Positions 11,673 to 62,700 of a DNA stretch of 64,000 bases are shown here, piece after piece. This stretch comes from an uncultured virus (IMG/VR IMGVR_UViG_3300027901_000780). Taxonomy: Duplodnaviria; Heunggongvirae; Uroviricota; Caudoviricetes. The stretch is taken from IMG/VR virus record IMGVR_UViG_3300027901_000780; one strand, given 5' to 3'. A program made the translations under genes and the position numbers. The notes beneath the pieces were generated by a model that saw nothing but the letters and a program-made list of their open reading frames with translations, was not told where the DNA came from and searched no databases. The number at the start of each line of letters is the position of its first letter. The first letter of the stretch is position 1.

Positions 11673-12642
11673 CTCTTCTCATCTCAAAATCATTATATAT
11701 CTTTATTGTTTTATTTTTCTTTCTATATTTCTTTACATTATTATCCCTTAATATATCATATATCATATATATAATCCAACTTAATAAACCATAAATAAAT
11801 ACTAATAATACTGCTATAAATATATCTATGAATCCAAATGTCATTATACTATATAATAATGTTAAATATTCTGTTAATATCATAAATTGAAAATTTCTAT
11901 ATCTTATTGCTCTCTCTATTAATCCTATTGTATTGTAATAATATTCATTATTATTTCTATTCTTTAGTTTTGTGTATATTTTTGTTCCTGTTTCCCTAAA
12001 AAAACATTTACAAGATTTTAATTTTTGACTTTTTTTCAAATTTTCATACAATCGTATAATGTTTTTCGTGATATAGAATAAAAAATCACCACCCTTATTA
12101 AGAAAAACAATAAAATATTTTTTTAATTTTTTACTATATTGTGGTATGTTTATTATCATAGTATATATTATTATATTTATATATAACCATATTTTATTTA
12201 GTTCATTTTTTAATTTCTCTTTTTGTCTTAATTTTTCATTTCTATTTTTCTTCCTATTAAATATTTTAATTCTTTTTATTTCTTTTAATTCTTCACTTAT
12301 CTCATTAATTTTGTTATCTTCTATAAATTTAGCAAAATCTTTTCTCCTCATTATTGTAAAATTCATCCAAACCCCATCAACAAATGTCAAAATATTTATT
12401 CTTTCCATATCTTCAGTTATTTTACCATTAACACCAAATATTCCCAATTTTGTATTGAATACTTTAATGTTATTATTATTATCATTTTCAACAATTTCTT
12501 TCCTTTCTTCATTGATAATAATTTCCTCTATTTCTTCATTTAATTCAATTTTATTTATTTCTTCAATAACTGGAATTATATTTTCTTCTTCTTTTATTGT
12601 TAATTCTTTTATTATTTCCCCTTCATAATCTATAAATGGCAT
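11665..12642 (-). CDS. Membrane protein with N-terminal MPF tag
   Basis: Starts MPFIDYEGEIIKE; C-terminal TM segments. Confidence 0.8.
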   Translation of the reverse strand: MPFIDYEGEIIKELTIKEEENIIPVIEEINKIELNEEIEEIIINEERKEIVENDNNNNIKVFNTKLGIFGVNGKITEDMERINILTFVDGVWMNFTIMRRKDFAKFIEDNKINEISEELKEIKRIKIFNRKKNRNEKLRQKEKLKNELNKIWLYINIIIYTMIINIPQYSKKLKKYFIVFLNKGGDFLFYITKNIIRLYENLKKSQKLKSCKCFFRETGTKIYTKLKNRNNNEYYYNTIGLIERAIRYRNFQFMILTEYLTLLYSIMTFGFIDIFIAVLLVFIYGLLSWIIYMIYDILRDNNVKKYRKKNKTIKIYNDFEMRRDE

Positions 12643-15600
12643 TTATTCCTCCTCCTCTTTACTTAATCCTATTGATCTCTTTAAAAATGCTACCGTACCT
12701 TTTTCTTTTGCTACTACTTTTTCTAATTTTCTCTTTTCTTCTTTTTCTTCTTTTTCACCCACAACTAATAATTTTATTTGTTGTGATATTGACTTACCTT
12801 CTGCTTTCTCCCTATAATTTCTTATTGCATTAATTATTGTTGTTCTCTTCAAATATGCTATAAATCCTACTACTGCCACAATTAAAAATATTAAAATAGG
12901 TTTTAACCATAATGATATTATCTCTAATTGTATTGCAACAACCTCAACCCTTATTATAATTTCTCCTTTTAATAATATATAATCATTTATTGCTATTTTA
13001 TATAATCTATCATTATATGACCAATTAATATATGATGTTATATCTACATAACCAGTTCCATTTATATTCTCATAAATACTAAAATTTAAATAATGTGTTA
13101 CTGGATTATATTCATACCTTCCTAACCTTCCTATAAATTCATATAAAAATCCATACACATTTCTATCTACCTCTATTGTTGTTTCTATTATACCTACTGT
13201 CGGTCTATCTAATATTTCTTCATATAGTGATATAAATGGACTATATATGAAATGTAATTCACCAGTTGAATTTTCTATAATATCTACTGGTATATTCCAA
13301 CTTATTTCATTTACTATTCTTGAAAATCCTATTGAAACTCCTTCATACCTTACAAATAATATTGTCCATTTCTCACTTATATTTGCTTTCCAAAAAGTAC
13401 CATCTTCTGCATAATTTAATACTCCAATATAATATACAATCTCTCCTTTTCTAACCACATCTGTTATTTGTATAACATCTATTATTTCAACATATTTTCT
13501 CTCTTCTGGAAAAGTTGTACCATTTAATATATACCAATTATTGTTATAGTCATCTGTTAAATTTATGTTAATAAATGTAAAGTTATAATAATTTCCTAAT
13601 TCTATTGTTAATTTAAAATTTGTTACTCTTGTATATGTCATTCCATTGTATTTCCATAATGAATAATTTATTTGATAATAATTACCTAAATAATTATTTA
13701 ATATAATACTATAATTTATTATTCTCCAAAAATCTTCTATGTTACTCTTTAATTTTATTCTTAATTTAAAATAATCTGCCAAATCAACCAATGCTGTTAT
13801 ATCTTCTTGAACTATTGGTGTTTGTCCAACCAATAAATATTGTGATTCTGTTTTATTAGTATATATTCTTGGTATTGACATCTGTAACTTCCAATCCCAT
13901 GTTACTGTTAAACCTATTTCTCCTGTTATATCCTTATATTCACTTGATGTTACATTATACCAATATAAAAAATATTCTTCCTGTTCATAATATGTTAAAC
14001 TAAAATATCTTATATCTTTTTCAAAATACACATTATCATAATAATTCTTTGCAAAATTATCTAATTCTGTATCATTTGAATATAACCAAACCTTCAATTC
14101 AAATTTATCATTAATATCTAATTGTATTCCATGTTCTTCTTTAAATGGTAACATTGTCGCTATAAAATCAACTCTTGTATTATAATAATCCCACACATAA
14201 TAATCAAAATACATTACTTCTTGTGATGTACTTATTCCATACATATAATCTTCATTATTTATTAATAAATTAATAACTTCCCTATTACTTATATTAATCC
14301 ACCACTTACTCCTACTACTTGTTTCTAATGATGTATTAAAATTACCTTCATATCTATAATATACTACACCATAAAAGTTATATGTTGTATTTAATGTTCT
14401 TCTCCTGAAAAATAATGGTTCTCCTTCCAAAGAATACATCTCTATAAAGAAATTAGTAATATTTTCTTCATATATCATATTTTCTAACTTATATACCTCT
14501 AATCTTTCTGTTCCAATATCTAAATAATATTCATAATTATATAATCTTGTATAATTTATATATATTTTAAATTCTGTAATATTAATACCACTTAATTCAA
14601 ATAAACTTATATTTAAATTACTTCCTTTATGAATATACATATATTCTACCATATAATTCTCTCTTATATCTTCTACATAAAACCATAATGTGTAATTTAT
14701 ATATAAATCATAAAAAAAGTTATCTTTACTCGTAATTATGTCTATATATAATATATCTGTTCCATTTGAAAACCTATCAAAAGAAAACTCATATAATGAT
14801 TTATTAACTGGAATTAATTCATTTCCCCAACTATAAGTAATATTTAATGTTACATTTCCTGCCTCATAAAAATATCTTAATTCTAAATATAAACTCCAAT
14901 TTTGCCCTTCTATTAATTCATCTGTTATATTATCATATCCTAATGCTTCATGTATAATAATTGTACCATTTCTTGTTTTTAATCCAAATGAAGTAAAATC
15001 ATCAAACCCCGTTGTTATTAAGGTATCATTTATGTATAAATTCTCTAACTCATAAAACTCTGATATATTTGATATAATAATAGTATTTGTTGGTAATATA
15101 ATATTCATAGTACCATTTGTTGAACTTACTCCATGTTGATAAGTATATAACAACTCATCACTTAGTATCAATTCAATATTTTCTTTCCAATTAACAAATA
15201 TTTTATTTTCTAAGTTATAAACTACTCTCTTTACATAACCTAAAGTTATTTCATAATATAATGTATTTGATAATATATCATCTAAATCTGGAGATAAACC
15301 ACTAAACCTATAATTACTCATTTTATCATAATTTCTCCCTTCATAATATATTTCTGGAAAACCATCAGTAACATTACTCCAACTATAATCTATTGCATCT
15401 AAATAAACCATATCATTATCCCATAAATCAACAGTCCTATAATAATAATTATTTATTGAATAATTATTCTCTTGATAAAATAATACATTACTTTTCTTCA
15501 AATCATTATCAATCCATATATTATAAGTGTAATTATCAAATATCTCTAATTTAAAGTGATACCATACCCCTCTTGTTAATGATATTATATCCTCTAATAA

Positions 15601-18600
15601 ATATCCATTAATTACATCAACACCATCTACCATATCATATAATAACTTAATACATATCATATCATCATACCTTAATTCAAGTGTATGCTCACGACAAGTA
15701 TAACTATATGAATCTTCAACAGCAAACCACCACTCTATTATTCCACTTGACATATTACCATTATTTTTACTATTTGTACTATTAAAAAAATTCATTATTG
15801 AATTATAATCATCATCCCAATAATCCCATAATCTCACTACTTTACTATGTTCCTTAAAATTATCAACCCCCCTAACATCACCACCATTTTCATATTCATC
15901 CCATTCATCAATCTCTCCTCCCTTTGTATATGTAAATGAATATGTACCTTTATAATTGTTATATAATGGTGTCCCATTTAATCTTAAATCAATACTACCA
16001 TCTGGTAAAGTTGTATAATTATCAAATAGATTTATATTTATTAATAAACAATCTATTGTTATATTATAAAATATTGTTTCATTTATATTATATCCACTTA
16101 TATTAAATTGCATCTCCTTTATTTCTGTTCCTATCCTATTTCTTACATAATTACTTAAATTTGTTCTATCAATTAATATTGTTCCATTAGTTATTGTTAT
16201 ATTATTTAAATATGCAATTACATCCCATTCTACATTTGTATAATCATAAATACTAAATGATATATTTATATCACTAAATGAATCATTTATTATATTATTA
16301 TCTACATATGTAATATAATCCATATTATATTTAACCGTTATATTTGACATAAAATTTTCATAATAATATAATGTTTCATTAAATGTAATATTAACACTTC
16401 CTCTTGTTCCATTTGCTATATATAAATTTGCCCCATCACAATACCTTAATAATGTATCATTATTTAATTCACTTGTATTTACAAATGGTTGTAATACTGC
16501 ATAATCAATATATACAGCAGAAGAATTATCTGTTATTAAATTAAAACCTCCATCAAACTTAAATAATAAAGTTTTATTATTTTTTTCAACTAATCCATTT
16601 AAGTCATTTACAATATACCATGTATAATTATAATTATTTGGTAATATAAAGTCCCAATCCTTTTCTTCTAATATATACCATTCATTACTACTCCAATTCC
16701 ATATTTCTATTGATACACCTTCTGGTTGTGTAGTACCCATTCCCCAATGTAATGTTAAATTTAATTTTAATGCTTCATATATTAAATTCATTCCATATTC
16801 CGTTAAATTATAGTATAAATATATCTGTGAAACAACATCATCATCATAATTTGAACTTGCAAATACCCTATATACTGAATCATAATCTTCTGGTATTATT
16901 AAATCCCATGTACTTGTATAATTATTAAATACTCCATCAGTAATTGTTCCATATGAATAATTATATCCATCATGTGCATATCTTGTATCATTAAAATAAA
17001 TTAATTCACCTTCTCCTATAAATCCTTCTGTTATATTAATATACTCTAATATATAATTAGTATTATAATATGTTTCATTATAATCAATAAATATATCAAC
17101 CCCTGTTGTATTCCATTGTGTATTTTGGGTAGTCCCATATCCTTGTGGCATAACCCAATATAATGAATTATCTCCTTCCAAAATATTATTTGTAATATCT
17201 CCTTCTATATATCCATCTAATTCAAATGTTGGATCACTTTTATTGTATAAACTCACATTTTCAAATTGTATTGATGTTTGATTAATATTCCAACTTATAT
17301 TATCATATTCATTATATGTTCTATTAATATAATATGAATAATTTCCATTTATTTGATTCCAATACATTGAATTATTTGAATTAATATTAACATCATAATA
17401 TCCTCTCCAATCATATATATATTGGTTTTCACACTCCCTATATATTGGTTCTTCTGTAATTACCTTTAACTCTAATATTGAATTATTAGTAAATTTATTA
17501 TCTGGTTCAAGTACCATATTAAATCCACTTGTACCCACCTTTAATTCTTGGTCACCTGAATTAAATGTAACTCCAGTTGTTATTTCTGTCCAATCTACAT
17601 CTACCCCATATGAATTTTTACAAGTTAAATGTACATTTTGAAATGTCATTATATCAAATATATATATTTCTGGATTAGTTAAATTACCCTCTACTGGATT
17701 AGTTATTATATATCCCATAGTCCATTCATCTATCAATGTAAGTTCATCTATCATCCAAAATCTTCCAGTTATTTCTATATCTGCTATAACCTTTATTCTT
17801 TTTCCAGTTCTCCAATCTATTCCAGTTGTAAAATTAATTGATCTCTTTGGCATTAATGTATTTAATAACTTTCCTTTTCCTAATCCACTATCAGATATAC
17901 TTATATTATTTGCCCGTAAATTTATTTCTCCACATTGTACTGTATCAAAAAATGTTATATTATTTACATTTACTGATAATTCATATTCTCCTGCTAAATT
18001 ACCACCACTACTTTCAAATCGTATTCTATAATAAAAGAAATTTGTATAACTAAAGTATAATATTGTACTATGACTTGGTGGATTACTTACATAAGTTGTA
18101 TATTGATATATTTTATTTATATCATACACATCAACATAAAATCTTGTATATGCTATTGTCGCTATTACATCTCCTTCTGGTACAACCGTAAATTCTTGAT
18201 TATATAAAAATGATATATTTATACTACTTGCATAATGAAACATAGTATGATTCATTAATTCAGTATGTACCCCAACCCATCCACCACTATCATAATGCAT
18301 CTCAAAATAATTATTTGCCTCTGCAAAACTATATGTACTTGGTGTAGAAACACAACCAACATCTCTTAATGTTTCATTTACCATCCTTATATAATCAATT
18401 AATACTGATATATTTCCATTATCTGAAGCAACTGTTTCTGTTAAATTTATTCCTATATGTGTAATATCTTCATCTATTGTTATTGGCAATTCTAACCTTC
18501 CCCATTGTGTTACACTATAATATGATGACCACACCCATCCAAACGTATCATACCTTACTCCTATACATGAATGTATATTTTGTATAGTTCCACTCCATCT

Positions 18601-19986
18601 ATAATTTGTTAATATTGCTTGACAATAATTACCATTATAATTTACATCTGGTATATCTTTTATTATTGTTATATTATTTATCTCTTCGTAAAAACCAAAA
18701 TCATTTATTCCATGACTATCAATACTTAACATTAATTTATCATCACCATATGTTGTTGGAAATAACTTTACCTCATAACTTCCATTAGGAAAATTATTAC
18801 TATCATCTTGTGTTGTCATAGCACCTATATACCACTCATCTTCTAATAATAAATTACTACTAAAATCCATATTTTGATAATCATATACTGGATTTGCAAA
18901 TGTTACCTTTATATATAAATAATCATACATTACATATTTGTCTATTGCTGGTGATGTAGTATATCCAGAATGAACAGCAATAGACATATAACCATTATTT
19001 GTCCAATCTATATAATCCTTACCATTTCTTTTCCATAATGTTCCTCCACTCTGTCTTTCATATAATGTAATAAATCCTACTTGCCAATAACTTACATCTG
19101 TACCTGCCCAATTAAATAATTCTTCATCTAAATCACCACCAGTTGTTGTCCATATAAATACTCTTCCCCTATCTAATGCACCTGTACTACCCTTTCCATG
19201 TGCAAATAAACCGTAATAAACATCAACCCTTTCTATATAATTTTGCCAATTTCCTAATGAACCAATTTGTCCTTGTTTATCTCTATCGTTACCATATCTA
19301 TTATTTACTAAATCAATATCTCCTATATAATAATCAAAAAAGGATAATGTATTCATTCCTGCCGCTGTATCATACCTTCCATCTGTTTCAAAATTATAAG
19401 TATCATTATAATCTACTTCATCATTATCTCCCCAAAAATTATCTGAATCAATATAAGCACCTTGTGTATGTATTTCAATATTATTATATATTCCCCTATA
19501 ACTATATGTTGAATAAGTACCTGTTACTGCATGTTGTACCGAAGTTTCATCCTTTGCATATATATTTGCACTTATTCCCCAAAAATCATCACTATTATCA
19601 TTAAAATCTTCTATTATTATATTACCATCATATAAACTTTCATCTTCTAATATTTCTGCACTATAATTATATTCAAATGTTTGATTATATGTATCATATA
19701 CCTTTAATCTATTAATTAATATACTACTATTTACTATATCAAATTGTGGTGATAATTTATCCCAATAATTAGGTATATAATAATCATATTCATAATATGT
19801 CTGAGTACCAACTATCCCTATTGTTGAATCAAACAAATCTATTTCACTACTTGATTTTTCATTTATACTATTATAAATATTATTTTTTTCATTATATAAT
19901 ATATTATTTTTCATATAAAATATACTTATAAAAAATTGAAATATTAATATTAATATAATTACTGTACTTACTATTTTTTTATTCAT
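12643..19986 (-). CDS. Giant membrane-anchored surface glycoprotein / adhesin-like protein
   Basis: 2447 aa; N-terminal signal MNKKIVSTVIILILIF, very many N-x-S/T sequons, beta-rich, C-terminal TM followed by KR and a charged tail. Confidence 0.9.
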   Translation of the reverse strand: MNKKIVSTVIILILIFQFFISIFYMKNNILYNEKNNIYNSINEKSSSEIDLFDSTIGIVGTQTYYEYDYYIPNYWDKLSPQFDIVNSSILINRLKVYDTYNQTFEYNYSAEILEDESLYDGNIIIEDFNDNSDDFWGISANIYAKDETSVQHAVTGTYSTYSYRGIYNNIEIHTQGAYIDSDNFWGDNDEVDYNDTYNFETDGRYDTAAGMNTLSFFDYYIGDIDLVNNRYGNDRDKQGQIGSLGNWQNYIERVDVYYGLFAHGKGSTGALDRGRVFIWTTTGGDLDEELFNWAGTDVSYWQVGFITLYERQSGGTLWKRNGKDYIDWTNNGYMSIAVHSGYTTSPAIDKYVMYDYLYIKVTFANPVYDYQNMDFSSNLLLEDEWYIGAMTTQDDSNNFPNGSYEVKLFPTTYGDDKLMLSIDSHGINDFGFYEEINNITIIKDIPDVNYNGNYCQAILTNYRWSGTIQNIHSCIGVRYDTFGWVWSSYYSVTQWGRLELPITIDEDITHIGINLTETVASDNGNISVLIDYIRMVNETLRDVGCVSTPSTYSFAEANNYFEMHYDSGGWVGVHTELMNHTMFHYASSINISFLYNQEFTVVPEGDVIATIAYTRFYVDVYDINKIYQYTTYVSNPPSHSTILYFSYTNFFYYRIRFESSGGNLAGEYELSVNVNNITFFDTVQCGEINLRANNISISDSGLGKGKLLNTLMPKRSINFTTGIDWRTGKRIKVIADIEITGRFWMIDELTLIDEWTMGYIITNPVEGNLTNPEIYIFDIMTFQNVHLTCKNSYGVDVDWTEITTGVTFNSGDQELKVGTSGFNMVLEPDNKFTNNSILELKVITEEPIYRECENQYIYDWRGYYDVNINSNNSMYWNQINGNYSYYINRTYNEYDNISWNINQTSIQFENVSLYNKSDPTFELDGYIEGDITNNILEGDNSLYWVMPQGYGTTQNTQWNTTGVDIFIDYNETYYNTNYILEYINITEGFIGEGELIYFNDTRYAHDGYNYSYGTITDGVFNNYTSTWDLIIPEDYDSVYRVFASSNYDDDVVSQIYLYYNLTEYGMNLIYEALKLNLTLHWGMGTTQPEGVSIEIWNWSSNEWYILEEKDWDFILPNNYNYTWYIVNDLNGLVEKNNKTLLFKFDGGFNLITDNSSAVYIDYAVLQPFVNTSELNNDTLLRYCDGANLYIANGTRGSVNITFNETLYYYENFMSNITVKYNMDYITYVDNNIINDSFSDINISFSIYDYTNVEWDVIAYLNNITITNGTILIDRTNLSNYVRNRIGTEIKEMQFNISGYNINETIFYNITIDCLLININLFDNYTTLPDGSIDLRLNGTPLYNNYKGTYSFTYTKGGEIDEWDEYENGGDVRGVDNFKEHSKVVRLWDYWDDDYNSIMNFFNSTNSKNNGNMSSGIIEWWFAVEDSYSYTCREHTLELRYDDMICIKLLYDMVDGVDVINGYLLEDIISLTRGVWYHFKLEIFDNYTYNIWIDNDLKKSNVLFYQENNYSINNYYYRTVDLWDNDMVYLDAIDYSWSNVTDGFPEIYYEGRNYDKMSNYRFSGLSPDLDDILSNTLYYEITLGYVKRVVYNLENKIFVNWKENIELILSDELLYTYQHGVSSTNGTMNIILPTNTIIISNISEFYELENLYINDTLITTGFDDFTSFGLKTRNGTIIIHEALGYDNITDELIEGQNWSLYLELRYFYEAGNVTLNITYSWGNELIPVNKSLYEFSFDRFSNGTDILYIDIITSKDNFFYDLYINYTLWFYVEDIRENYMVEYMYIHKGSNLNISLFELSGINITEFKIYINYTRLYNYEYYLDIGTERLEVYKLENMIYEENITNFFIEMYSLEGEPLFFRRRTLNTTYNFYGVVYYRYEGNFNTSLETSSRSKWWINISNREVINLLINNEDYMYGISTSQEVMYFDYYVWDYYNTRVDFIATMLPFKEEHGIQLDINDKFELKVWLYSNDTELDNFAKNYYDNVYFEKDIRYFSLTYYEQEEYFLYWYNVTSSEYKDITGEIGLTVTWDWKLQMSIPRIYTNKTESQYLLVGQTPIVQEDITALVDLADYFKLRIKLKSNIEDFWRIINYSIILNNYLGNYYQINYSLWKYNGMTYTRVTNFKLTIELGNYYNFTFININLTDDYNNNWYILNGTTFPEERKYVEIIDVIQITDVVRKGEIVYYIGVLNYAEDGTFWKANISEKWTILFVRYEGVSIGFSRIVNEISWNIPVDIIENSTGELHFIYSPFISLYEEILDRPTVGIIETTIEVDRNVYGFLYEFIGRLGRYEYNPVTHYLNFSIYENINGTGYVDITSYINWSYNDRLYKIAINDYILLKGEIIIRVEVVAIQLEIISLWLKPILIFLIVAVVGFIAYLKRTTIINAIRNYREKAEGKSISQQIKLLVVGEKEEKEEKRKLEKVVAKEKGTVAFLKRSIGLSKEEEE

Positions 19987-24554: not shown

Positions 24555-24956
24555 CTATAATTTCTTAAATTTACAATCTGAATATTTATCTAATATATTA
24601 TTTAATTCTATTTTAATTTTATCTGCTTCCCTTATATTTTCTGCCCTTTTTTCATCTGCCTCTAATAAATCTTTTTCTTTCATTCTCATTAATTTTACTG
24701 CATTATTCCATTCTCTTTGTAATATTATTTTTGATTCTGGTTTTGCCCTTTTCATCCTTTTCTCTAAATTAATAACATACATTCTTGCTCTTGCTAATAC
24801 CATATGTGCATTATCAAAATCATAATCTAAATATTTTCTTGATTGAAATAATTTTTCTAATTTTTCTAAATTATCATTAAATTCATTTCTTATATCAGTA
24901 CAAGTTAATTGCCCAATTAATTCTTTTACTTCTTCCTTCTTTGCTTCAAATGGCAT
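24555..24956 (-). CDS. CxxKKL family hairpin protein with MPF N-terminus
   Basis: MPFEAK..LTCTDIR...CKFKKL. Confidence 0.85.
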   Translation of the reverse strand: MPFEAKKEEVKELIGQLTCTDIRNEFNDNLEKLEKLFQSRKYLDYDFDNAHMVLARARMYVINLEKRMKRAKPESKIILQREWNNAVKLMRMKEKDLLEADEKRAENIREADKIKIELNNILDKYSDCKFKKL

Positions 24957-40311: not shown

Positions 40312-40908
40312 ATGCCATTTAAAGAATATACTGAAATAATAAGTGATAATAAAGAAAAAAGAAAAGAAAGAAGAAAATTAAGGAAAATAAATAAAATAAA
40401 AGAAGAATATTATGATATTAGAAATAATTTTATTGGTGTAATATCAAATATAATATCTAATGAAGATAATCTTGATAATAAATTAAAAGAAATACTTAGA
40501 AATGGTGTTCAATTTATTTCAATAAAGATGGAAGATATAAAAAATTCAAAAAGTGATGAAGAGAGAAATTTTGAAATATTAGAATATATACATAAACTAT
40601 TAGATATATATAAAAATTTAGAAATATTATGGACTGATAAAAAAAGAAAATATATTAAAATGAATAAAGAAGAAAACATTAGTGTATTAATTAAGAAAGA
40701 AACAAAAAATGATATTATAGAAAAATTGAAAATAATGAAAATATTAAATAAATTAGTAATAAGTGCCATAGAAATGTATGAATTAATATATGAAGATAAT
40801 GAATTTAATTTAAGACAGGTATTAATAAATAAATATCAACAATATTCAATATATATGAAAAAGATAAATTTTGATTATGTATATAAAGTTGAAATTAATA
40901 AAGAATGA
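40312..40908 (+). CDS. Hypothetical protein, MPF N-terminus
   Basis: MPFKEY... Confidence 0.8.
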   Translation: MPFKEYTEIISDNKEKRKERRKLRKINKIKEEYYDIRNNFIGVISNIISNEDNLDNKLKEILRNGVQFISIKMEDIKNSKSDEERNFEILEYIHKLLDIYKNLEILWTDKKRKYIKMNKEENISVLIKKETKNDIIEKLKIMKILNKLVISAIEMYELIYEDNEFNLRQVLINKYQQYSIYMKKINFDYVYKVEINKE

Positions 40909-45440: not shown

Positions 45441-46289
45441 TTGACACCTTTTACAACAAAGGAAGGAATTTTAAAAGATGAAAGATTTAAACAGATATAT
45501 GGTGTTGAAGTTGAGGTTCTTAATGAAGAAGTAAATAATTATGGTAGTGGAAATGAAGAATTGGATAAGGTGATTGGAGAAATAATAAGAGGAATAAATA
45601 CATTTATTGGTGGATTTGCAACTGGAAAATCAACATTATGTAAAATGTATGTAATGAGGGCAATAAATATTGGTGATCATGTAATATATATAGATACAGA
45701 GAATAAAGTAACAAAACATAGATTTAAACAAATGATAGAATATTATAATATTGATGAGGATAAATTTAGTGAAAAATTTCATTTAATAAGAGTAAGAAGG
45801 TTGGATGAATTAATAGAGAAGATTGAAGAAATATTTACAAAAGAAGAATGGAAAGAAAAAAGGACTAATTGTTTATTAATAATAGATGGATTTAGCACAC
45901 CATATATGGAAGAATTTAGAACAGTAAGTGATAAATTTGAATTAGCAAGTACAAAAAATTCATTTTTCTTTTATTTAGAAACATATTTAACAATGAATAA
46001 TACAGTATGTGTTGTAACAATAAAATTAAAATCAGAATTAACAATAATAGATGAATTGAAAAAGAGAGATGAAATAAAAGGAAATAAAGAAATATTACAA
46101 GATTTGATGTTATTTAAGCATGGACAAGATATGGGTTATGATTCTGGTATGATGTTAATGTTTCGTAAGTTAAAGAAAAAGAGATTTTTTACAATAGAAA
46201 AACATCCATATAAAAAGGAGTATTGTGATTCAGAAGAAAAACATTACTTTAAAATTAATGATGGTGGATTAGAATTAAAAGATGTATAA
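45441..46289 (+). CDS. RecA-superfamily ATPase (RadA/RadB-like)
   Basis: SGNEELDKVIG, Walker A GGFATGKS, VIYIDTE, Walker B LLIIDG. Confidence 0.85.
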   Translation: MTPFTTKEGILKDERFKQIYGVEVEVLNEEVNNYGSGNEELDKVIGEIIRGINTFIGGFATGKSTLCKMYVMRAINIGDHVIYIDTENKVTKHRFKQMIEYYNIDEDKFSEKFHLIRVRRLDELIEKIEEIFTKEEWKEKRTNCLLIIDGFSTPYMEEFRTVSDKFELASTKNSFFFYLETYLTMNNTVCVVTIKLKSELTIIDELKKRDEIKGNKEILQDLMLFKHGQDMGYDSGMMLMFRKLKKKRFFTIEKHPYKKEYCDSEEKHYFKINDGGLELKDV

Positions 46290-46359: not shown

Positions 46360-47757
46360 ATGATAGTGCCATTTCAGGGTAAAGATGAAATATATTATTC
46401 ATCAAAAGATAGAACTGATAAGGTAAAATCAGGCATTATCATGACAGATGAAATATCTGATGAAGAGATGGCAAGGGGAAAAAGAAAGTTAGATGATATG
46501 TTATTTGGAAAAAGAAAACAAGAAAAGAGTAAAATAATAATAAGTGATTTAGGTTTATTACCAGAATGGGTAAAAGAATCGTGTCCTATTACATGGAAAA
46601 TATATAATTTATTTGAAAAATATTTACCATTTTCAGGACATTTGGCAATATTAATAGCAACAGTATGGGAGAGTATGTTTTTAAAGGGTGAAGAAGGAAA
46701 AGATATAAGACCAATAAGTTTAATAATAGTTGGTGAAGGTGCTGGTGGTAAAACATATTGTACAGAACAATTTAAGAGATTACCAAATTTAGTAGATATA
46801 GAATATCCAACATATAGTACATTCTTAAAACAGTATGGAGATACACAATTAAGTAGTCAAAAAAGTAGGTCATTAAATAATAAGTTTTTATATTTAACAG
46901 AGATGGCTATGATAGCAAGAACAAGTGAGCAAACAAGAAAGAATTTATTTTCATGTTGGAATAGTATTATGACAGAAGGAAAGTATCAAGGTGCATTAAA
47001 GGGAACTACATATTATATAGGTGAAAGATTAAAACCAATAAGATTTGGTTTAATGGGTGTAATGGTAATGGAGGATTTTTATGAGAGAGTATTTCCTATA
47101 ACTGACTTTGCAACAAGAATATTAATAGCATTTCATTTATTTCAAATTGAAGAAGCATTGGTTATAGATGAAGGAATATTATATGAGGCATTTGGGGATG
47201 TTGATGTATCGGATACTGTATATAATTTAGTACCAAAACATACAGAAAGATTAACTATTGATTATGATCCACATTCATTAGATATGTCTGGTGTAAAGAG
47301 AATAGTTGGTATAATATCAAAAACAAGAAAAGAAGCATATGGGTTTCGTGGTACTCAAGATGTAAAAAAGTTATTAAAGGCACATGCTATATTAAATAAA
47401 AGAAAAAAGGTAATTAATGATGATATAAAAATGCTTAGAGCATTAAGTACATTATTTAAGAATCCATGTAGTAATACATGTAATTTTCAAATAATATTGA
47501 GATCACAGGAAACTGATGATATTGCAAGTGTATTGGATAGTATGAAAAATTATAGGGTATTTAAGATACATAATGAACATATAATGTATAATGAGAATAC
47601 TATAAATAGGTGTATGCAAAGTTTATTAATGTCTAATTATTTTGGTGTTGATAAAGCAAAGATGGTAACAAAAAAAGTAAAAGATAAAAAAGAAGCAGAA
47701 GGAAAGAGAAATGTAATATTAAATTTTTTTAAAGATGAAAATATTGGTGATATTTAA
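46360..47757 (+). CDS. MCM-like AAA+ ATPase/helicase
   Basis: LIIVGEGAGGKT, LYLTEM, FATRIL, GFRGTQDVKKLLKAHAILNKRKKVINDDI (MCM-like lid); likely start GTG 46366 (MPF). Confidence 0.7.
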   Translation: MIVPFQGKDEIYYSSKDRTDKVKSGIIMTDEISDEEMARGKRKLDDMLFGKRKQEKSKIIISDLGLLPEWVKESCPITWKIYNLFEKYLPFSGHLAILIATVWESMFLKGEEGKDIRPISLIIVGEGAGGKTYCTEQFKRLPNLVDIEYPTYSTFLKQYGDTQLSSQKSRSLNNKFLYLTEMAMIARTSEQTRKNLFSCWNSIMTEGKYQGALKGTTYYIGERLKPIRFGLMGVMVMEDFYERVFPITDFATRILIAFHLFQIEEALVIDEGILYEAFGDVDVSDTVYNLVPKHTERLTIDYDPHSLDMSGVKRIVGIISKTRKEAYGFRGTQDVKKLLKAHAILNKRKKVINDDIKMLRALSTLFKNPCSNTCNFQIILRSQETDDIASVLDSMKNYRVFKIHNEHIMYNENTINRCMQSLLMSNYFGVDKAKMVTKKVKDKKEAEGKRNVILNFFKDENIGDI

Positions 47758-51916: not shown

Positions 51917-52264
51917 ATGCCAATAATAAAAAGAGATGGAACTGTAATAAAGGAAGTAGAAACTAAGGAAGGTGAAGAAGAATTATATGTTGTAGATTTA
52001 CTAATATTAAAGGAAAATAGAGAAATATTTGAAAGAGTAAAAAAAGTTTGTGAAGATATTAGTAAGAAAGATGAAACATTTGAGTATAAAATTTCAATGG
52101 AAAGTGATAAAACTAAATTCTTAGTTATAAAGGTATTTGGTAATGAAAATTTTAATCAAGCAAAGAAAAGGGGTAAATGGTTTAATTATAAGGTAGATGG
52201 AAAAATATTATATAAGGTACATAAAGTTGTTTATGGAGATGATTATGGTGGCAAGACCAAGTAA
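51917..52264 (+). CDS. Hypothetical protein, paralog of 41768-42175
   Basis: Start MPIIKRDG after GGTGTGA; VKKVCEDISKKDETFEYK..VIKVFGN..RGK. Confidence 0.8.
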   Translation: MPIIKRDGTVIKEVETKEGEEELYVVDLLILKENREIFERVKKVCEDISKKDETFEYKISMESDKTKFLVIKVFGNENFNQAKKRGKWFNYKVDGKILYKVHKVVYGDDYGGKTK

Positions 52265-52389: not shown

Positions 52390-52521
52390 ATGCCTTTTGA
52401 TAAGGAAAAAGAAAAAACATTAGAAAAAGATAAAAATTATAAAAAATTAGATAAAAAAATAAAAAATAATGATAAATATACACAAATATTAAAAAAAATA
52501 TGTTCGGATTTAGATAAATAA
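52390..52521 (+). CDS. Small basic protein with MPF N-terminus (43 aa, not in ORF track)
   Basis: MPFDKEKEKTLEKDK...ICSDLDK. Confidence 0.6.
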   Translation: MPFDKEKEKTLEKDKNYKKLDKKIKNNDKYTQILKKICSDLDK

Positions 52522-52532
52522 GTGATAAGTAT

Positions 52533-52766: not shown

Positions 52767-52789
52767 ATTAATAAGGAGATAAATAGATA

Positions 52790-55510
52790 ATGCCATTTTT
52801 AACTACTACTGGAGAAGAAATAAAAAAAGTGTATGGAGTGGATGAACCAGTAGAAGATAATATATATATGGTAGTAGGTGTCGATTATAATGGTTATGAA
52901 AAAAAGATGGTTGGTAATATTGAGATAAGGGGTTGTGCAATAATAAAATTATATGATATAATGACAGGAGAAATAAAGTTTTGGAATGATAATACAAATC
53001 ATTTACCTTATATGTTGGCAATAATAAGAAAGGGTGATGGAGAGGATTATTATTTAATAAAGGAAAGAGTTGAAAGTAATATAATACTTAATCCAGAGAA
53101 GAGTGAAAATATAATATTTTTTGAAAGTATTATAAAGAAAAATCCATTGATTGATGAAGAAGAAGAGGAATATGTTAAAGTTGTTGCTGGTGATCCACTT
53201 ACGATAGGAGATTTAAGGAGAAGAATGAGGGATGAAAATATAAAAGAAGGAAAAATAAGATATTATAAGTGTTATACTTATGATGAGAAAATAGAAATAG
53301 GATTAATGTATAAGATAGTTGATGACAAATTAATAAAGGTAGATACTGAGATAGATGATAAAATAAGAAAATTTTTCAAAGAAAGGATAGAATTAAAAAC
53401 AGATGATGAAATAAGGGTATTTAGTAGGATGTTAAAGTCATTTTTTGTTAAGATTCCTACATTTAAGAAGGTATTAGGGTTAGATATTGAAGTATATAAT
53501 GTTGGTGTAACACCAAAAGAGTTTAAGACATTTGCAGAGGATGGAAATTATCCAATAGTTACAATATCATTTGTTTCTGATGATGGAATGATGAAAGTAT
53601 TTTCATTAAATATAAAAGGGAGAAAGAGAGGTAATAAAGAAGAAATTATTAAAAAAATGAAAAAACAATATCAGTTTAATTATAAATTAGATGATGTAGA
53701 ATTTGAATTTTTTGATAGTGAAAAAAGGATGTTAGAAAATACATTTGAAATAATAGATAGATATTCAATTGTATGTACATTTAATGGAGATGAATTTGAT
53801 TTTAGGTATATATATAATAGGGCAATGAATAAATATGGATTTAAAAAGTGGCAATTTCCATTTATTATGAGAGATTTTATGGGAAAACATACAATAAATT
53901 TGAAGAATGGTATTCATATAGATGAATATCATTTTATAGGTGAAAATCAATCAATAAGAACATATGCACTAAGAGGTAAATTAAAGTTTAAGAGTTTAGA
54001 TCATGCAGGAGAAAAATTGTTAGATGAAAGAAAGTTAGATGTTAGTATGGATGATATAGATAAATATGATGATTATGAATTAGGATTTTATTGTTTGCAA
54101 GATTCATATATAACATATAAATTAATGACATATAATAATCAAATGTTGTTAAAGTTAGTAGTAATGTTAATGAGATTAACTACAACGACAATGGATGATT
54201 TATGTAGATACCAAATAAGTAATTGGTTACATAATATGATGGATTGTTATCATAGATATTTAAATATGGTTATACCTAATCCAATTGAAATAAGAAAGAA
54301 GGTAAAGTATGCTCATACAAAGGCAAAAGTAAAGGGAAAGAAATTTCAAGGTGCAATAGTAGTACAACCAAAGTTAGGAGTACATTTTAATGTAGTATGT
54401 TTAGACTTTGGTTCATTATATCCAACAGTAATAAAGGATTGGAATTTGTCATATGAAACAGTAAATTGTGGTCATGATGAATGTATTGAGTGTGAAACTA
54501 ATAAAATACCAGAAACAAAACATTATTATTGTATAAAAAGGAGAGGAATATTTAGTTTATTAATTGGACTAATAAGAGATTTTAGATTATATTATTTTAA
54601 GGAGAAGGCAAAGAATAAGGATAAATCATTAACACCAGAAGAAGAAGAATTATATAAAACAATTGAACAAGCATTAAAAGTTATAATGAATGCAAGTTAT
54701 GGTGTTGAAGGAAGTGAAGAATTTTATTATTTTTCATTACCAGTAGCAGAGAGTACAACAGCAATAGCAAGATATTCAACTAAAAAATTAATTAAGAAAT
54801 GTGAAGAAATGGGAATATTTGTTATATATGGTGATACTGATAGTGTATTTTTATATGAACCGACAGAAGAACAAATAAATAATTTGATAGGTTGGTCATT
54901 TAATGAATTAGGTATTGAATTAGGTATAGATTATGAATTTATATGGTGTGCATTTAGTGAAAGAAAGAAGAATTATGTTGGATTAGGTGTAGATGGAGAA
55001 TTGAGTATAAAAGGATTAACTGGAAAAAAGAAGCATGTACCAGAGTTTCTTAAGAATATATTTAATTTAATAACACAATTATTAATATCAATGAGAAATC
55101 AAAGGGATGTATTAGATACTGTTAATTTAATAAAAGGTTCAGTAAGAGATATGTTAAATAAATTTTATAAGAGAAGGTTTGAATTAGAAGATTTAGTATA
55201 TAGAGTAGAGTTACATAGAGATATAGAAGATTATAAAGGTAATCCACCACATGTAAAGGTGGCAATGATGCTACAAAATAGTGGGGAAGATGTAAAGGCA
55301 GGAGATACAATAGAATATATAAAAACAACAGGAAAACATAGTGCTAAACCATTAAAATTTGTGAGAAGGCATGAAGTAAATACAAAACAATATGAAAGAG
55401 AAATGAAATCAATGTTAGAACAAGTTTTAGATTGTTTTAATATAAATTGGAGTGAAGTTAAAGGTCAAATATCAAAGGGACAATTTGAAAATATGTTGGG
55501 AATGGTATAA
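52790..55510 (+). CDS. polB: Family B DNA polymerase, archaeal PolB1-like
   Basis: ExoI LDIEV, ExoII FNGDEFD, ExoIII YCLQD, DFGSLYP, QALKVIMNASYG, YGDTDS, KKNY. Confidence 0.97.
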   Translation: MPFLTTTGEEIKKVYGVDEPVEDNIYMVVGVDYNGYEKKMVGNIEIRGCAIIKLYDIMTGEIKFWNDNTNHLPYMLAIIRKGDGEDYYLIKERVESNIILNPEKSENIIFFESIIKKNPLIDEEEEEYVKVVAGDPLTIGDLRRRMRDENIKEGKIRYYKCYTYDEKIEIGLMYKIVDDKLIKVDTEIDDKIRKFFKERIELKTDDEIRVFSRMLKSFFVKIPTFKKVLGLDIEVYNVGVTPKEFKTFAEDGNYPIVTISFVSDDGMMKVFSLNIKGRKRGNKEEIIKKMKKQYQFNYKLDDVEFEFFDSEKRMLENTFEIIDRYSIVCTFNGDEFDFRYIYNRAMNKYGFKKWQFPFIMRDFMGKHTINLKNGIHIDEYHFIGENQSIRTYALRGKLKFKSLDHAGEKLLDERKLDVSMDDIDKYDDYELGFYCLQDSYITYKLMTYNNQMLLKLVVMLMRLTTTTMDDLCRYQISNWLHNMMDCYHRYLNMVIPNPIEIRKKVKYAHTKAKVKGKKFQGAIVVQPKLGVHFNVVCLDFGSLYPTVIKDWNLSYETVNCGHDECIECETNKIPETKHYYCIKRRGIFSLLIGLIRDFRLYYFKEKAKNKDKSLTPEEEELYKTIEQALKVIMNASYGVEGSEEFYYFSLPVAESTTAIARYSTKKLIKKCEEMGIFVIYGDTDSVFLYEPTEEQINNLIGWSFNELGIELGIDYEFIWCAFSERKKNYVGLGVDGELSIKGLTGKKKHVPEFLKNIFNLITQLLISMRNQRDVLDTVNLIKGSVRDMLNKFYKRRFELEDLVYRVELHRDIEDYKGNPPHVKVAMMLQNSGEDVKAGDTIEYIKTTGKHSAKPLKFVRRHEVNTKQYEREMKSMLEQVLDCFNINWSEVKGQISKGQFENMLGMV

Positions 55511-55539: not shown

Positions 55540-56013
55540 ATGTTAAAAGAAGAAGAATTAAAAAAAATAAAAAATATTAAAAAAGAAGAAAAAGAAGAAA
55601 TGAAAAATAAATATTATAAGTTTCCAAATAATATAGAAGAAGTAAGAAGTATAGTAGTAGAAGAAAATGAAAATAATAAAATAATAATTATAGATTATTT
55701 TACTAATTCATGTACTCCATGTAAGTTTTTAGATAATATATTATTGGGAGTATTTAAGTATTATGAAGATAAAGGAATAAAGGATAAATTTTCATTATTA
55801 AAAATTAATTTAGATAATGATAATTTATTAGATTTAGCGGTAACATTTGGTATAAAGGCAATACCAACATTAATGTTTATAAAGAATAGTGAATTACAAA
55901 AAGTAAAAATGAAGGATGATGATGGAGAAATAAGGGAACATGAAATATTGGTTGGGTTGAAAGAACCTGAGGTATATGTTAGTATATTTAATAAGATAAT
56001 GGAAGGTAAATAA
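55540..56013 (+). CDS. Thioredoxin
   Basis: IIDYFTNSCTPCK, FGIKAIPTLMFIKN. Confidence 0.9.
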   Translation: MLKEEELKKIKNIKKEEKEEMKNKYYKFPNNIEEVRSIVVEENENNKIIIIDYFTNSCTPCKFLDNILLGVFKYYEDKGIKDKFSLLKINLDNDNLLDLAVTFGIKAIPTLMFIKNSELQKVKMKDDDGEIREHEILVGLKEPEVYVSIFNKIMEGK

Positions 56014-57133: not shown

Positions 57134-57838
57134 ATGAATAATATTAATGAAACAATTAAAATAGGAATGGTGGGAACACATGGTATTGGAAAAACTGAAT
57201 ATGTTAAGATGTTGTATAATTGGTTCATTAATGATAATAGTATAAAATATACAAAAGATGATATTGCATATATATATGAAATAGTTAGGGATTGTCCATA
57301 TCAAGTAAATGAAAAGACATCATTAAAGGCACAAAAATGGATTCTTGATAATCAAATTGATAGAGAAAGACATTTTTATGAATTAAATAAAAAAATTATA
57401 ATAACTGATAGAACAGTTATAGATAATTTTGCATATTTATTATATGCAAAGAGGGTATCAGCAAAAGATATGAAAGTTAAAGATGTTGTAAAGTATGCGG
57501 GTGATGTTGATTTTTGGTTGGATGTTCATCCATATAATATAATATTTTATATAAGGATACCTAATAATTTAGAATATAATGAAATAACTATATATGATGA
57601 TGGTTTTAGGTCTATAAATAAGAAATTTCAATTAGAAATAGATAAAATAATTGAAGTAATATTAATTAATAGATTTAATTTAAATGTGATAGATTATTAT
57701 GAAATTGATGAAGAATATGTAAGGATTCATAAATATAATAATATATTTATGATTAATGCTGATTATGGTAATTTAACAGAAGGGTTTAATAAGATATTAG
57801 AGGTAATAAAGAAATATAATGGGATGGGGTTGATATAG
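57134..57838 (+). CDS. P-loop nucleoside/nucleotide kinase-like (NadR/AAA_28 type)
   Basis: GTHGIGKT, ITDRTVIDNFAY, DDGFRS. Confidence 0.85.
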   Translation: MNNINETIKIGMVGTHGIGKTEYVKMLYNWFINDNSIKYTKDDIAYIYEIVRDCPYQVNEKTSLKAQKWILDNQIDRERHFYELNKKIIITDRTVIDNFAYLLYAKRVSAKDMKVKDVVKYAGDVDFWLDVHPYNIIFYIRIPNNLEYNEITIYDDGFRSINKKFQLEIDKIIEVILINRFNLNVIDYYEIDEEYVRIHKYNNIFMINADYGNLTEGFNKILEVIKKYNGMGLI

Positions 57839-58650
57839 TGCCATTTTCAAATGAAACTGATGAGGAAATAAAAGAGAGAACAATGGAAATTATTAAAATT
57901 AGTGATGAAGATAAATATTTGATAGAACAATTAAAGAAAAACATTAAGAATGGTGTAAGAAAGAGTAGAATAAAATCAGTTGTTTATTATAAGAATAGAG
58001 GACATTGGGGAGATAATAAATTTAGAGGAAATACAACAGGAAAATTATTAATAGATTTATTTAACTATTATTTACCAACTAAGGTATATGATCCAATGGA
58101 AGGAAGTGGAACAGTAAGAGATGTATGTATAGAAGCAGAGATAGATTATATTGGGAATGATTTAATAAGTGGGGGTTATGATTTATTATATTTACCAGAA
58201 TTGAGATTATTAAAGAATTTAAAGGTGGAGTTAATTGATTTTATTTTCTTTCATCCGCCATATTGGGACATTATAAAGTATTATGATTTGTATAATACAA
58301 ATAAGGATGATTGTTTAAGTGGGTGTGAAACATATAAAGAATATTTAGAATCTTTAAGATTATGTATAGATATATTATGGCAAATATTAAGAAAAGGTGG
58401 GCATTTGGTTATACAATTAGGAGATAAAAGAAAGGATAATAGATATTATCCAATAACATTTGATATATATCAAAGATTAAGTAATTTATTTATAATACCA
58501 AATCAATTATATTTAGAACAGATAATAATAAAAGTACAAGAGTATTATAAAAATGGGACAGAAGGTGTTGGTATTGAAGGGTATAATATGTTTGGAACAC
58601 CAATAATACCAATAAATCATGAATATATATTAATATTAAGGAAGATTTAA
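57838..58650 (+). CDS. DNA amino-methyltransferase (N4-C/N6-A)
   Basis: YDPMEGSGT SAM-binding motif, FFHPPYW catalytic motif. Confidence 0.9.
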   Translation: MPFSNETDEEIKERTMEIIKISDEDKYLIEQLKKNIKNGVRKSRIKSVVYYKNRGHWGDNKFRGNTTGKLLIDLFNYYLPTKVYDPMEGSGTVRDVCIEAEIDYIGNDLISGGYDLLYLPELRLLKNLKVELIDFIFFHPPYWDIIKYYDLYNTNKDDCLSGCETYKEYLESLRLCIDILWQILRKGGHLVIQLGDKRKDNRYYPITFDIYQRLSNLFIIPNQLYLEQIIIKVQEYYKNGTEGVGIEGYNMFGTPIIPINHEYILILRKI

Positions 58651-58653: not shown

Positions 58654-58830
58654 ATGCCATTTGAAAAAATAATTGATGAGATTGATGATAATAATAAATC
58701 TAAAAAGAAACCTAAATATATTAAAAAATGTATTAAATGTAATAAAGATATGATAGGAAAAAAGAAGGGAAATATTATAACATATTTTCATAAAGAATGT
58801 AGGTATGGATTATTAGTGGTGATAAATTAA
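58654..58830 (+). CDS. Small Zn-finger protein with MPF N-terminus (58 aa, not in ORF track)
   Basis: MPFEKIIDE..CIKC..FHKEC. Confidence 0.7.
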   Translation: MPFEKIIDEIDDNNKSKKKPKYIKKCIKCNKDMIGKKKGNIITYFHKECRYGLLVVIN

Positions 58831-61814: not shown

Positions 61815-61827
61815 GGAGATGATATAT

Positions 61828-62700
61828 ATGCCATTTGATAAAATAGGAGAAAAGAAAGAAGAAAAAATAGAAATTGGTAGTAGTAGTGAATTAGAAAATA
61901 AAGAAATATCAAAAGAGGAAGATTCAATAAATGTTGATGAATTAGAAAAATTGGATATAAATAGAGTAGTAATGGAAGTAGCAAAACCATTAGTGGAAAA
62001 AATTGAAAAATTAGAAAAAAATATATTAGATAGTAAAATATATAAAAATGAATTAGTGAATCAGGTAGTAGATAATTTACTAAATTTAATAGTTCCATTA
62101 AAAGAGTTTAATGGAACATATATAGACTTAAATAAAAATTTAATTAATACAAATAATAAATTAGTTAATTCTATTAATGAATTATTAAAAAATATAAAAG
62201 ATTTAGCAAATGATTTAAATGATGAATTTATGGTAATGGTTAATACAATGAGAACAGTTGAATCATTAGTAAGAATGGTTGAATCATTAATATTAAAGTT
62301 AGATGTTAGACCAGTAATTAATTTAAGTCCAATAATAGAAGTTAAAATAGATGAAAAGAATAAAGTTATTCCAATAAAACCAAAGAAAGAACCAGTAAAA
62401 TCAATAAAAAAGGAGGAAGATGATACAATTAGAACACCATTAAAACCAGATGAAATGATAGAAGAACTTGATGAATTTACAGATAAAAAGGTGCAAAAAA
62501 TAGTTGGTGGAGATGAAAAGTTGATAATGTTTGAAGGAGAAATGATAGGTATAAAAATTATTACTATAAAGAAATTAATGGAAAAGACTGGTTTAACTAA
62601 GAAAGATATTATAAAATTTTCAAAGGAAAAAGGATATAAGATAACAAAAACAAGGATATATACTGATATTAAAGTAAAAAATTTAATAGAAAAAGAATAA
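61828..62700 (+). CDS. Coiled-coil protein with MPF N-terminus
   Basis: ATG 61828 after GGAGATGA; MPFDKIGEK. Confidence 0.8.
   Translation: MPFDKIGEKKEEKIEIGSSSELENKEISKEEDSINVDELEKLDINRVVMEVAKPLVEKIEKLEKNILDSKIYKNELVNQVVDNLLNLIVPLKEFNGTYIDLNKNLINTNNKLVNSINELLKNIKDLANDLNDEFMVMVNTMRTVESLVRMVESLILKLDVRPVINLSPIIEVKIDEKNKVIPIKPKKEPVKSIKKEEDDTIRTPLKPDEMIEELDEFTDKKVQKIVGGDEKLIMFEGEMIGIKIITIKKLMEKTGLTKKDIIKFSKEKGYKITKTRIYTDIKVKNLIEKE

Follow-up and report, generated by a model that had tools for sequence, protein, structure and literature searches.

A conserved Met-Pro-Phe N-terminus shared by otherwise unrelated proteins of an archaeal-type virus or plasmid

Unrelated proteins with a common N-terminal motif

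We analysed a stretch of 64,000 nucleotides from an uncultured virus (IMG/VR record IMGVR_UViG_3300027901_000780), called the window below, and found that 13 of its approximately 90 genes, or about one protein in seven and most of the proteins that copy its DNA, start with Met-Pro followed by a hydrophobic residue. Eleven of these proteins start with M-P-F, one with M-T-P-F and one with M-P-I, and the residue after Pro is accordingly Phe in 12 of the 13 and Ile in the remaining one. These starts are a real, selected and conserved short linear motif of the lineage of this element, acting at the protein level; we refer to it as the tag. The preliminary description of this DNA had listed 12 M-P-F or M-T-P-F starts, all of which were present in the sequence, and the 13th, with M-P-I at 51917, was added in this study. 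The tag peptide is of the type PFLTTTGEEIKK, and its layout consists of Met-Pro-hydrophobic, two to five variable residues and then about 12 acidic, hydrophilic residues.

The genes of the element are arranged in two divergent arms, and the carriers are concentrated in the right arm, which encodes replication and recombination functions (9-10 of the 13). They comprise a family-B DNA polymerase (PolB), a RadB-like recombinase, an AAA+ ATPase, a clamp-like protein, a DNA methylase, two small proteins rich in Lys or Cys and six proteins to which no function was assigned, while the thioredoxin, phosphatase, kinase, Hjc and DprA-like proteins of the window are untagged. The 13 genes are listed below, with lengths in amino acids (aa), the sequence at the start codon and, for several of them, the Shine-Dalgarno (SD)-like sequence with its distance in nucleotides (nt).

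11665..12642, minus strand: gene of 325 aa, starting MPFIDYEGEIIKE right after the stop codon of a 2447-aa gene; ATGCCATTT at the start, GAGGAGGAGG 4-11 nt upstream; no family match
24555..24956, minus strand: gene of 133 aa, starting MPFEAKKEEVKE (MPFEAK); ATGCCATTT at the start, GGGGAGG 6-8 nt upstream, 1-nt overlap with the upstream stop codon
29918..32020, minus strand: gene of 700 aa, starting MPFEEKVEINNK (MPFEEK); ATGCCATTT at the start, AAGGTGAT 9-10 nt upstream; no family match
40312..40908, plus strand: gene of 198 aa, the first of the right arm, starting MPFKEYTEIISD (MPFKEY) with a basic stretch next; ATGCCATTT at the start
45441..46289, plus strand: RadB/RadA-like recombinase of 282 aa, TTG start, M-T-P-F with Pro encoded by CCT; TTGACACCTTTT at the start; Pfam Rad51 1.4e-8, NCBIfam RadB 2e-16
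46366..47757, plus strand: P-loop/AAA+ ATPase of 463 aa, GTG start, MPFQGKDEI; GTGCCATTT at the start; weak AAA-lid match and P-loop
49295..51220, plus strand: protein of 641 aa, the C-terminal two thirds predicted to be PCNA-clamp-like, ATT at the start position, (M)PFTTETDEEIKERT; ATTCCATTT at the start
51917..52264, plus strand: gene of 115 aa, new to the list, starting MPIIKRDGTV; ATGCCAATA behind GGGTGTGAT
52390..52521, plus strand: small open reading frame (ORF) of 43 aa, doubtful as a gene, MPFDKEKEK with Pro encoded by CCT; ATGCCTTTT at the start, weak SD (TTGAT)
52790..55510, plus strand: PolB (PolB1-like) of 906 aa, starting MPFLTTTGEEIKKVYGVDEP; ATGCCATTT at the start; Pfam DNA_pol_B 2.1e-44
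57838..58650, plus strand: DNA methyltransferase of 270 aa, GTG start, MPFSNETDEEIKERT; GTGCCATTT at the start; Pfam N6_N4_Mtase 2.2e-7 from residue 133
58654..58830, plus strand: small Cys-rich protein of 58 aa, starting MPFEKIIDEIDD (MPFEKI); ATGCCATTT at the start, AAGGAAG 11 nt upstream
61828..62700, plus strand: gene of 290 aa, starting MPFDKIGEKKEE (MPFDKI); ATGCCATTT at the start, GGGAG 9-10 nt upstream

The absence of family matches refers to scans with Pfam, PHROGs and NCBIfam, the family scans used throughout this study. Searches of PDB sequences gave nothing useful for four proteins, nor for two profiles. For the protein at 46366, labelled MCM-like in the preliminary description, the weak AAA-lid match and the P-loop were all that we found, and the label is not supported.

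The frequency of the tag was far above that predicted from composition. A count of N-terminal tripeptides, proposed earlier, gave within the window 11 M-P-F starts against 0.08 expected (90 sense-strand genes; P 2.0%, F 4.6%). Eleven genes of this set encode Pro at position 2, each of them with Phe at position 3, and with 51917 included the residue after Pro-2 is always Phe or Ile. Of the 44 PF dipeptides in the same set, 11 are located at residues 2-3 (binomial p 2.5e-16), and ATGCCATTT occurs eight times on the sense strand, compared with 0.3 expected, and never on the antisense strand. In a control, the halovirus HCTV-5 with 57 annotated coding sequences, the commonest tripeptide was MTE (4 of 57), and only two of five Pro-2 starts had a common tripeptide (MPK).

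PF is also enriched inside the window proteins, where it occurs 33 times, the expectation for all positions being about 18 (44 against 18 in total), and CCATTT was counted 36 times on the sense strand against 12 expected. Several internal I-P-F tripeptides are encoded by ATACCATTT; D/E-K often comes next, as in the tags.

An all-against-all comparison of the 13 tagged proteins indicated that they are mutually unrelated past residue 20 (best E-value 0.023). The first 19 residues of the methylase at 57838 are 68% identical to those of the clamp-like protein at 49295, with no similarity between the two elsewhere. Compared with 52 untagged N-termini, residues 4-15 of the tagged proteins were more acidic (33% vs 18%, p<0.001) and less hydrophobic (23% vs 39%, p=0.001). 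We found no published account of the tag in the literature on N-terminal MPF in archaea or on shared N-terminal targeting signals of archaeal viruses, where the searches yielded peroxisome papers only.

Translation starts of the tagged genes

The preliminary description had named the possibility that the true starts lie elsewhere. This is countered by the SD sites, by the nearby upstream stop codons and by the start codons of orthologues in a related contig, L001, described in the next section. An SD-like core (GGAG, GGTG, GAGG, AGGA or a GTGAT tail) was present 3-13 nt upstream of every tagged start, being weak at 46366 and 52390, and an in-frame stop codon was located 0-20 codons upstream of the 12 starts listed earlier and 16 codons upstream of 51917. 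The ATG of L001 aligns with the ATT of the window at 49295 and with the GTG at 46366, with the N-terminal residues conserved, and for the clamp-like protein the residues conserved in this comparison extend upstream of its first ATG (49403). Public gene calls for 49295 and 46366 omit or shift the tag. At 61828, an alternative ATG upstream of the start, at 61819, is too near the SD. The 43-codon ORF at 52390 has no counterpart in L001 and is doubtful as a gene.

At 49288-49297 the ATT is placed 4 nt past the TGA of the upstream gene, with GGAG just ahead of the TGA. Initiation at the ATT is the simple reading of 49295; alternatively, a +1 shift at the stop codon may fuse the 404-aa and the 641-aa proteins.

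The tag is retained in a relative of the element

Two protein searches found a single related contig, L001, of 10.5 kb and 27% G+C, with a strand skew as in the window. It is syntenic with the window: 11 of its 12 ORFs match the region 43.9-54.1 kb at 41-69% identity. The tagged pairs are as follows.

RadB-like protein: M-T-P-F in the window, M-P-F in L001 (P0073/L001:1436, ATGCCATTT, MPFTDAKG)
AAA+ ATPase: M-P-F in the window, M-P-I in L001 (65% identical, ATGCCAATT, MPILGKDG, same position)
Clamp-like protein: (ATT)-P-F in the window, M-P-F in L001 (ATGCCATTT, MPFTYQSDEEIRKE)
Protein at 51917: M-P-I in the window, M-P-F in L001 (L001:7880-8347, MPFKTISEDRD; C-terminal parts 48% identical)
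PolB: M-P-F in both; the L001 orthologue starts MPFINQEGEIVKKVYKKEEP

Five further proteins (44838, 47758, 48076, Hjc and 52533) are untagged in both the window and L001, so that the tag state was concordant in all ten orthologue pairs, five tagged and five untagged. In four L001 pairs, P-F was identical at 7 of 8 positions, compared with 5 of 16 for residues 4-7. In P0070, a near-identical variant of the AAA+ protein of the window, the corresponding residues read P-L at the protein level. Searches for other relatives gave no match for PolB, the AAA+ protein, the clamp-like protein or a conserved 278-aa protein in viral contigs, and none for the AAA+ or the 278-aa protein in genome contigs; by tblastn, the AAA+ and 404-aa proteins had no match in phages, and the AAA+ protein had none in plasmids.

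A signal at the level of protein

The start codons of the tagged genes include ATG, GTG, TTG and ATT, with four of the 13 genes on weak start codons, and Pro is encoded by CCA or CCT, which confirmed the variation in start and Pro codons reported earlier. At 45441 an extra Thr codon precedes that for Pro. The residue at position 3 is F, I or L among the orthologues and the strain variant, with TTT, ATT and ATA as the codons seen. In ETDEEIKERT, a stretch of ten codons common to 49295 and 57838, we noticed three codon differences, all of them synonymous. Since the start and Pro codons vary, a Thr insertion is tolerated, position 3 varies and L001 conserves the tag, the signal acts on the protein.

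We also considered pairing of the tag codons in the RNA. The predicted duplex of the tag start with the SD region had a mean of -4.3 kcal/mol for the tagged genes vs -1.0 kcal/mol for the untagged ones. However, the tagged genes' own upstream regions paired with the tag codons no better than 52 untagged upstream regions did (-4.25 vs -3.94 kcal/mol, p=0.87), and the unpaired probability of the start region did not differ between the tagged and untagged genes (p=0.28). Because of these two results there is no sign of a co-evolved RNA structure, and a hairpin sequestering the SD was ruled out as the general cause of the tag. A single gene, that at 40312, had a predicted 10-bp hairpin (AAGUGGUAUA/UAUGCCAUUU) over the SD and the AUG, with a duplex of -9.6 kcal/mol that beats all 52 untagged upstream regions. 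The tag codons may still have a general damping effect on initiation.

The N-terminal recognition signal proposed in the preliminary description thus holds as to its protein level, as indicated by the codon variation, the concordance of the ten pairs and the unrelated carriers. Between the functions named there, i.e. localisation to a compartment, a degron or stabiliser, or a modification site, these data make no distinction.

PolB, a clamp-like protein and a possible docking function

A comparison with PolB1 homologues, likewise proposed earlier, was made for the polymerase of the window. Its best non-self homologues were polymerases of Nitrososphaerota, Thorarchaeota and Bathyarchaeota with at most 38% identity, and its identity to phage polymerases was only 23-25%. 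None of 59 PolB1 homologues starts with M-P; instead, in 28 of the 59 the core is preceded by L-x-x-[FY]-[FLYS] at the very N-terminus, in ten of them in a full QxxLEDF[FL]-type form. A C-terminal L-x-x-[FYW]-[FLMWY] is present in 45 of the 59 and is lacking in the PolB of the window, which has a PCNA-binding-type motif at neither end and carries the tag on an extension of about 25 residues ahead of the core. The excerpted text of PMC1636371 gives the consensus of the PCNA-interacting protein (PIP) box as Qxx(M/L/I)xxF(Y/F) and proposes Gln4 and Leu7-Phe8 of Sulfolobus solfataricus PolB1, that is, N-terminal residues, as binding PCNA2. Among 94 ORFs of the window, only that of the 2447-aa protein has the canonical PIP pattern, once and within a signal-peptide-like N-terminus, and no tag matched it.

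The 641-aa protein at 49295 had been labelled PCNA-like. This label found a counterpart in a predicted structure and none in sequence. In the ESM Atlas model, residues ~215-592 resemble PCNA, with ~241-268 residues aligned, and the template modelling (TM) score by row was 0.72-0.84 in 9 of the 10 matches listed, all of them PCNA or Rad1 clusters, and 0.59 in the tenth. A search with the 605-aa form of the protein found no sequence homologue among 1.84e9 representatives.

On the basis of these sequence comparisons we favour, tentatively and with somewhat less than even confidence, the reading that the tag may be a docking label for one shared partner, because it occupies the N-terminal place of the PCNA-binding-type motif in the PolB1 relatives. 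The comparisons thus suggest a docking motif, an option absent from the preliminary list. The leading candidate for the partner would probably be a sliding clamp, judging from the predicted model most likely the element's own diverged PCNA-like protein. Met aminopeptidase cleaves Met ahead of Pro at position 2. With this specificity, the host enzyme would be expected to remove Met from the tagged proteins, so that Pro-Phe would form the free tip of a flexible acidic leash. This tip could then enter a hydrophobic pocket of the shared partner, and docking of this kind would gather the tagged proteins at the replicating DNA. As the tag starts at residue 2, its recognition may involve the free N-terminus.

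Because PolB lacks PIP motifs, the element is PIP-poor and it encodes a clamp-like protein of its own, a lineage-specific swap of the clamp-client motif is also suggested. In its full form, this would mean that the element exchanged the PIP-box code for a private clamp-client code, with an orphan clamp, at least ten clients and an N-terminus-anchored motif, which we consider rather unlikely; if true, such a code would insulate the viral replisome from that of the host.

Several observations weigh against docking, and against a clamp as the partner. The clamp likeness comes from one predicted-model comparison, with a TM score by query of 0.37-0.40 and a model pLDDT (predicted local distance difference test) of 0.52, and searches of the clamp-like protein against Pfam and PDB sequences gave no PCNA match. 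This protein is itself tagged, which is unexpected under a simple client-clamp model. Three tagged proteins are encoded in the left arm and have no functional assignment, and the Hjc and DprA-like proteins are untagged; in Sulfolobus, Hjc is a partner of PCNA. Gln is absent from the tag, whose anchor has only two residues, the tag codons could act as RNA (with about 3 kcal/mol more SD pairing than untagged starts), and the only relative, L001, covers only the 44-55 kb region.

A possible reader of the tag is the conserved 278-aa neighbour at 43873-44709; its predicted structure had a mean pLDDT of 35 and was unusable. Directly after PolB (52790-55510) lies the thioredoxin gene (55540-56013), a neighbourhood that recalls the pairing of T7 polymerase with thioredoxin.

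Alternative explanations

The tag could also be a translation-level signal, in which a Pro codon and then UUU after the start codon tune the protein yield, either because the first peptide bonds form slowly, with a dependence on aIF5A/EF-P, or because the C residues, which are the only ones near the start, pair with the G-rich SD. C makes up only 5.7% of the sense strand, which makes a CC beside the start conspicuous, and the stronger duplex of the tag with the SD, the hairpin at 40312 and the weak start codons in four of the 13 genes all fit such a role. However, the equal pairing of the own upstream regions and the equal accessibility of the start speak against it, as do a position 3 that stays hydrophobic though its codon changes, the changing Pro codon, the Thr insertion and the acidic stretch that follows; moreover, one Pro alone does not make a classical EF-P stall motif. 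We regard this explanation as unlikely. A stability or processing signal, in which N-terminal Pro shields the protein from acetylation or aminopeptidases, seems to us more doubtful still, also when it is taken together with its N-degron variant, where an X-Pro dipeptidyl peptidase clips Met-Pro, exposes Phe, Ile or Leu and thereby times the turnover of replication proteins. Pro followed by a bulky hydrophobic residue in 13 of 13 tags is the arrangement that a hidden hydrophobic N-degron requires. Dipeptidyl peptidases expose N-degrons in eukaryotes according to the excerpted text of PMC11178506, and mutation of the host methionine aminopeptidase gives phage resistance according to that of PMC6761271. 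On the other hand, the family scans detected no reader of ClpS, GID4 or peptidase type in the window, and a degron would leave unexplained both the acidic leash and the replacement of the clamp motif at its position on PolB. To our knowledge, N-degron pathways have not been established in archaea.

A peptide that targets proteins to a virion under assembly or to a replication compartment, like the capsid-targeting sequence (CTS) of T4 and perhaps cut off later, would agree with a short N-terminal peptide on unrelated proteins of both arms and with the papain-like cysteine protease encoded at 6092-6634. We consider it improbable: among 89 proteins, the family scans picked up neither a capsid, portal or terminase family nor one of prohead proteases, where highly diverged ones could escape, the tag is concentrated on replication enzymes, and the T4-type [LI]xE site was not enriched (6 of 13 tagged vs 18 of 52 untagged proteins, p=0.53). 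Docking could instead be to a RecA-fold recombinase, with the tag and a following YGV mimicking, in a BRC-like manner, the polymerisation segment of RadA/Rad51 and binding the RadB-like protein or the host RadA. The N-terminus of the RadB-like profile aligns to S. solfataricus RadA (2bke) over the last helix of the N-domain and the polymerisation-motif region, with P-F of the tag at P54-L55 of RadA and the conserved Y20-G-V at RFKTA; PF...(I/V)YGV(D/E) is common to PolB and the RadB-like protein, and PFTDA is found in the RadB orthologue of L001. The polymerisation motif of RadA/Rad51 is FxxA, and because Ala at +3 from Phe occurs in none of the 13 window tags, this remains a minor rival, and a very improbable one. 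Besides, YGV is present only in the RadB-like protein and PolB of the window, with YKK in the L001 PolB, and the HMMER alignment is poorly supported, by posterior probability, in its N-terminal part. Least probable of all, to a degree that we can nearly dismiss it, is the absence of any function, i.e. chance, wrong starts, or a start cassette copied by recombination and then drifting. The general over-representation of PF and CCATTT, the 19 similar residues in 49295 and 57838, which could be a recent copy, and the doubtful gene at 52390 would be in its favour; it is opposed by the placement of PF at residues 2-3, by the SD sites and near upstream stops, and by ten concordant pairs out of ten at 41-69% identity with variable residues after P-F.

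Comparison with known systems

Under the docking reading, the tag would resemble the PIP box and the PolB1 motif in being a short terminal motif with a hydrophobic or aromatic anchor, located on diverse DNA enzymes and addressing one hub, which for the tag is a proposal; its location also coincides with that of L-x-x-[FY]-[FLYS] in the 28 PolB1 homologues. Unlike the PIP box, it has no 3-10-helix spacing, and Pro-Phe is its sole anchor; it is not a PIP box, because it lacks Gln and has only the two-residue anchor. A further difference is the tag on the clamp-like protein.

According to the excerpted text of PMC5872125, docking in DNA replication and repair uses the C-terminal tip of bacterial SSB, DDDIPF, in which a flexible acidic stretch ends in Pro-Phe. 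The tag recalls this tip in its chemistry, P-F with an acidic stretch. In contrast to the SSB tip, however, it is N-terminal, is found on many clients rather than on one hub, and offers a terminal amine instead of a carboxylate.

In T4, the proteins that carry the CTS are packaged, and the prohead protease, whose cleavage motif is (L/I)xE, cuts it off. The excerpted text of PMC3012670 describes the internal proteins of T4 as diverse, with only the conserved CTS in common, which encapsidates them. The tag is alike in that a short N-terminal peptide is the sole common feature of 13 otherwise unrelated proteins. It differs in that its carriers are mainly replication enzymes and that the element has neither a recognisable capsid or prohead protease family nor an enrichment of [LI]xE.

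The PIP box, the beta-clamp motif, the SSB tip and other docking motifs of replisomes are largely universal, and a lineage-specific N-terminal motif, if true, would represent a new wiring of a replisome. It could then account for the separation between the machinery of a mobile element and that of its host. The tag marks the proteins at 40312, 58654 and 61828 and the three left-arm proteins as probable members of one assembly, and P2 and F3 provide a two-residue experimental handle. If tags of this kind should prove to be general, they would have been overlooked, partly since gene callers mis-start these genes.

Organisation and gene content of the element

The G+C content is 20-26% across the window, with extreme strand asymmetry. 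Near 40 kb the GC skew flips its sign, from about -0.5 on the left to about +0.5 on the right, and the genes run leftward from ~39.7 kb and rightward from 40.3 kb. About 2 kb of AT-rich non-coding DNA (38050-40310) lie between the two arms and contain a G+C-rich hairpin at ~38404-38436 and a C-rich tract at ~38630-38655; this stretch is probably the replication origin or a control region. Scans of the window for tRNA genes and Rfam families gave no match.

The recognisable genes are archaeal in type according to the family scans, and include those of the PolB1-like polymerase, the RadB/RadA-like recombinase, a Hjc resolvase, an N6/N4 DNA methylase and a DprA-like protein. Thioredoxin, a HAD phosphatase, a P-loop kinase and a papain-like protease were also detected, and the majority of the remaining proteins had no family match. 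Judging from gene families, we describe the element as an archaeal-type virus or plasmid, for which capsid formation has no gene-family support here.

Some of the proteins deserve a separate comment. The methylase at 57838-58650 covers only positions 1-105 of the 221-position Pfam family N6_N4_Mtase and ends there, and it may be a split or truncated enzyme; the tagged gene of the 58-aa Cys-rich protein, at 58654, comes next. The 2447-aa protein (12643-19986, minus strand) begins with a hydrophobic, signal-like segment and matches no family, and the tagged 325-aa gene follows directly after it. Beside the RadB-like gene, a conserved 194-aa protein (44838-45422; L001:808-1434) has C-x-C...C-x-H near its C-terminus (CDCMGWKYHRNCRH), which by eye we take to resemble a SWIM-type zinc finger.

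A second shared motif was noticed at the C-termini of the left-arm proteins. Twelve small proteins encoded on the minus strand between 20351 and 37129 end in C-x-(L/I/F/M)-(K/R)-(K/R)-(L/I/M), with Cys six or seven residues from the end; examples are 23477-23872, 23911-24231, 24228-24533, 24555-24956, 34454-34669, 35458-35844 and 36887-37129. Only one pair among the twelve is detectably homologous (E 6.6e-5), and this Cys motif is a second shared tag in the element. The protein at 24555-24956 bears both, with an M-P-F start and the C-terminal Cys motif (SDCKFKKL). Beyond this double carrier we found no link of the kind proposed earlier, in which one tag complements the other.

The papain-like cysteine protease of the left arm (6092-6634, minus strand; Pfam Peptidase_C70 3.6e-6, Peptidase_C39_2 1.9e-5) might process one of the two tags, with no cleavage motif recognised; inspection of the M-P-F tags by eye for a site of the AvrRpt2/C39 type revealed no Gly-Gly and no P-x-F-G pattern. 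Finally, 36-100% of the words sampled from 45400-55399 were present in four DNA runs from four studies, two of which may have yielded the window; three are labelled marine sediment metagenome and one seawater metagenome.

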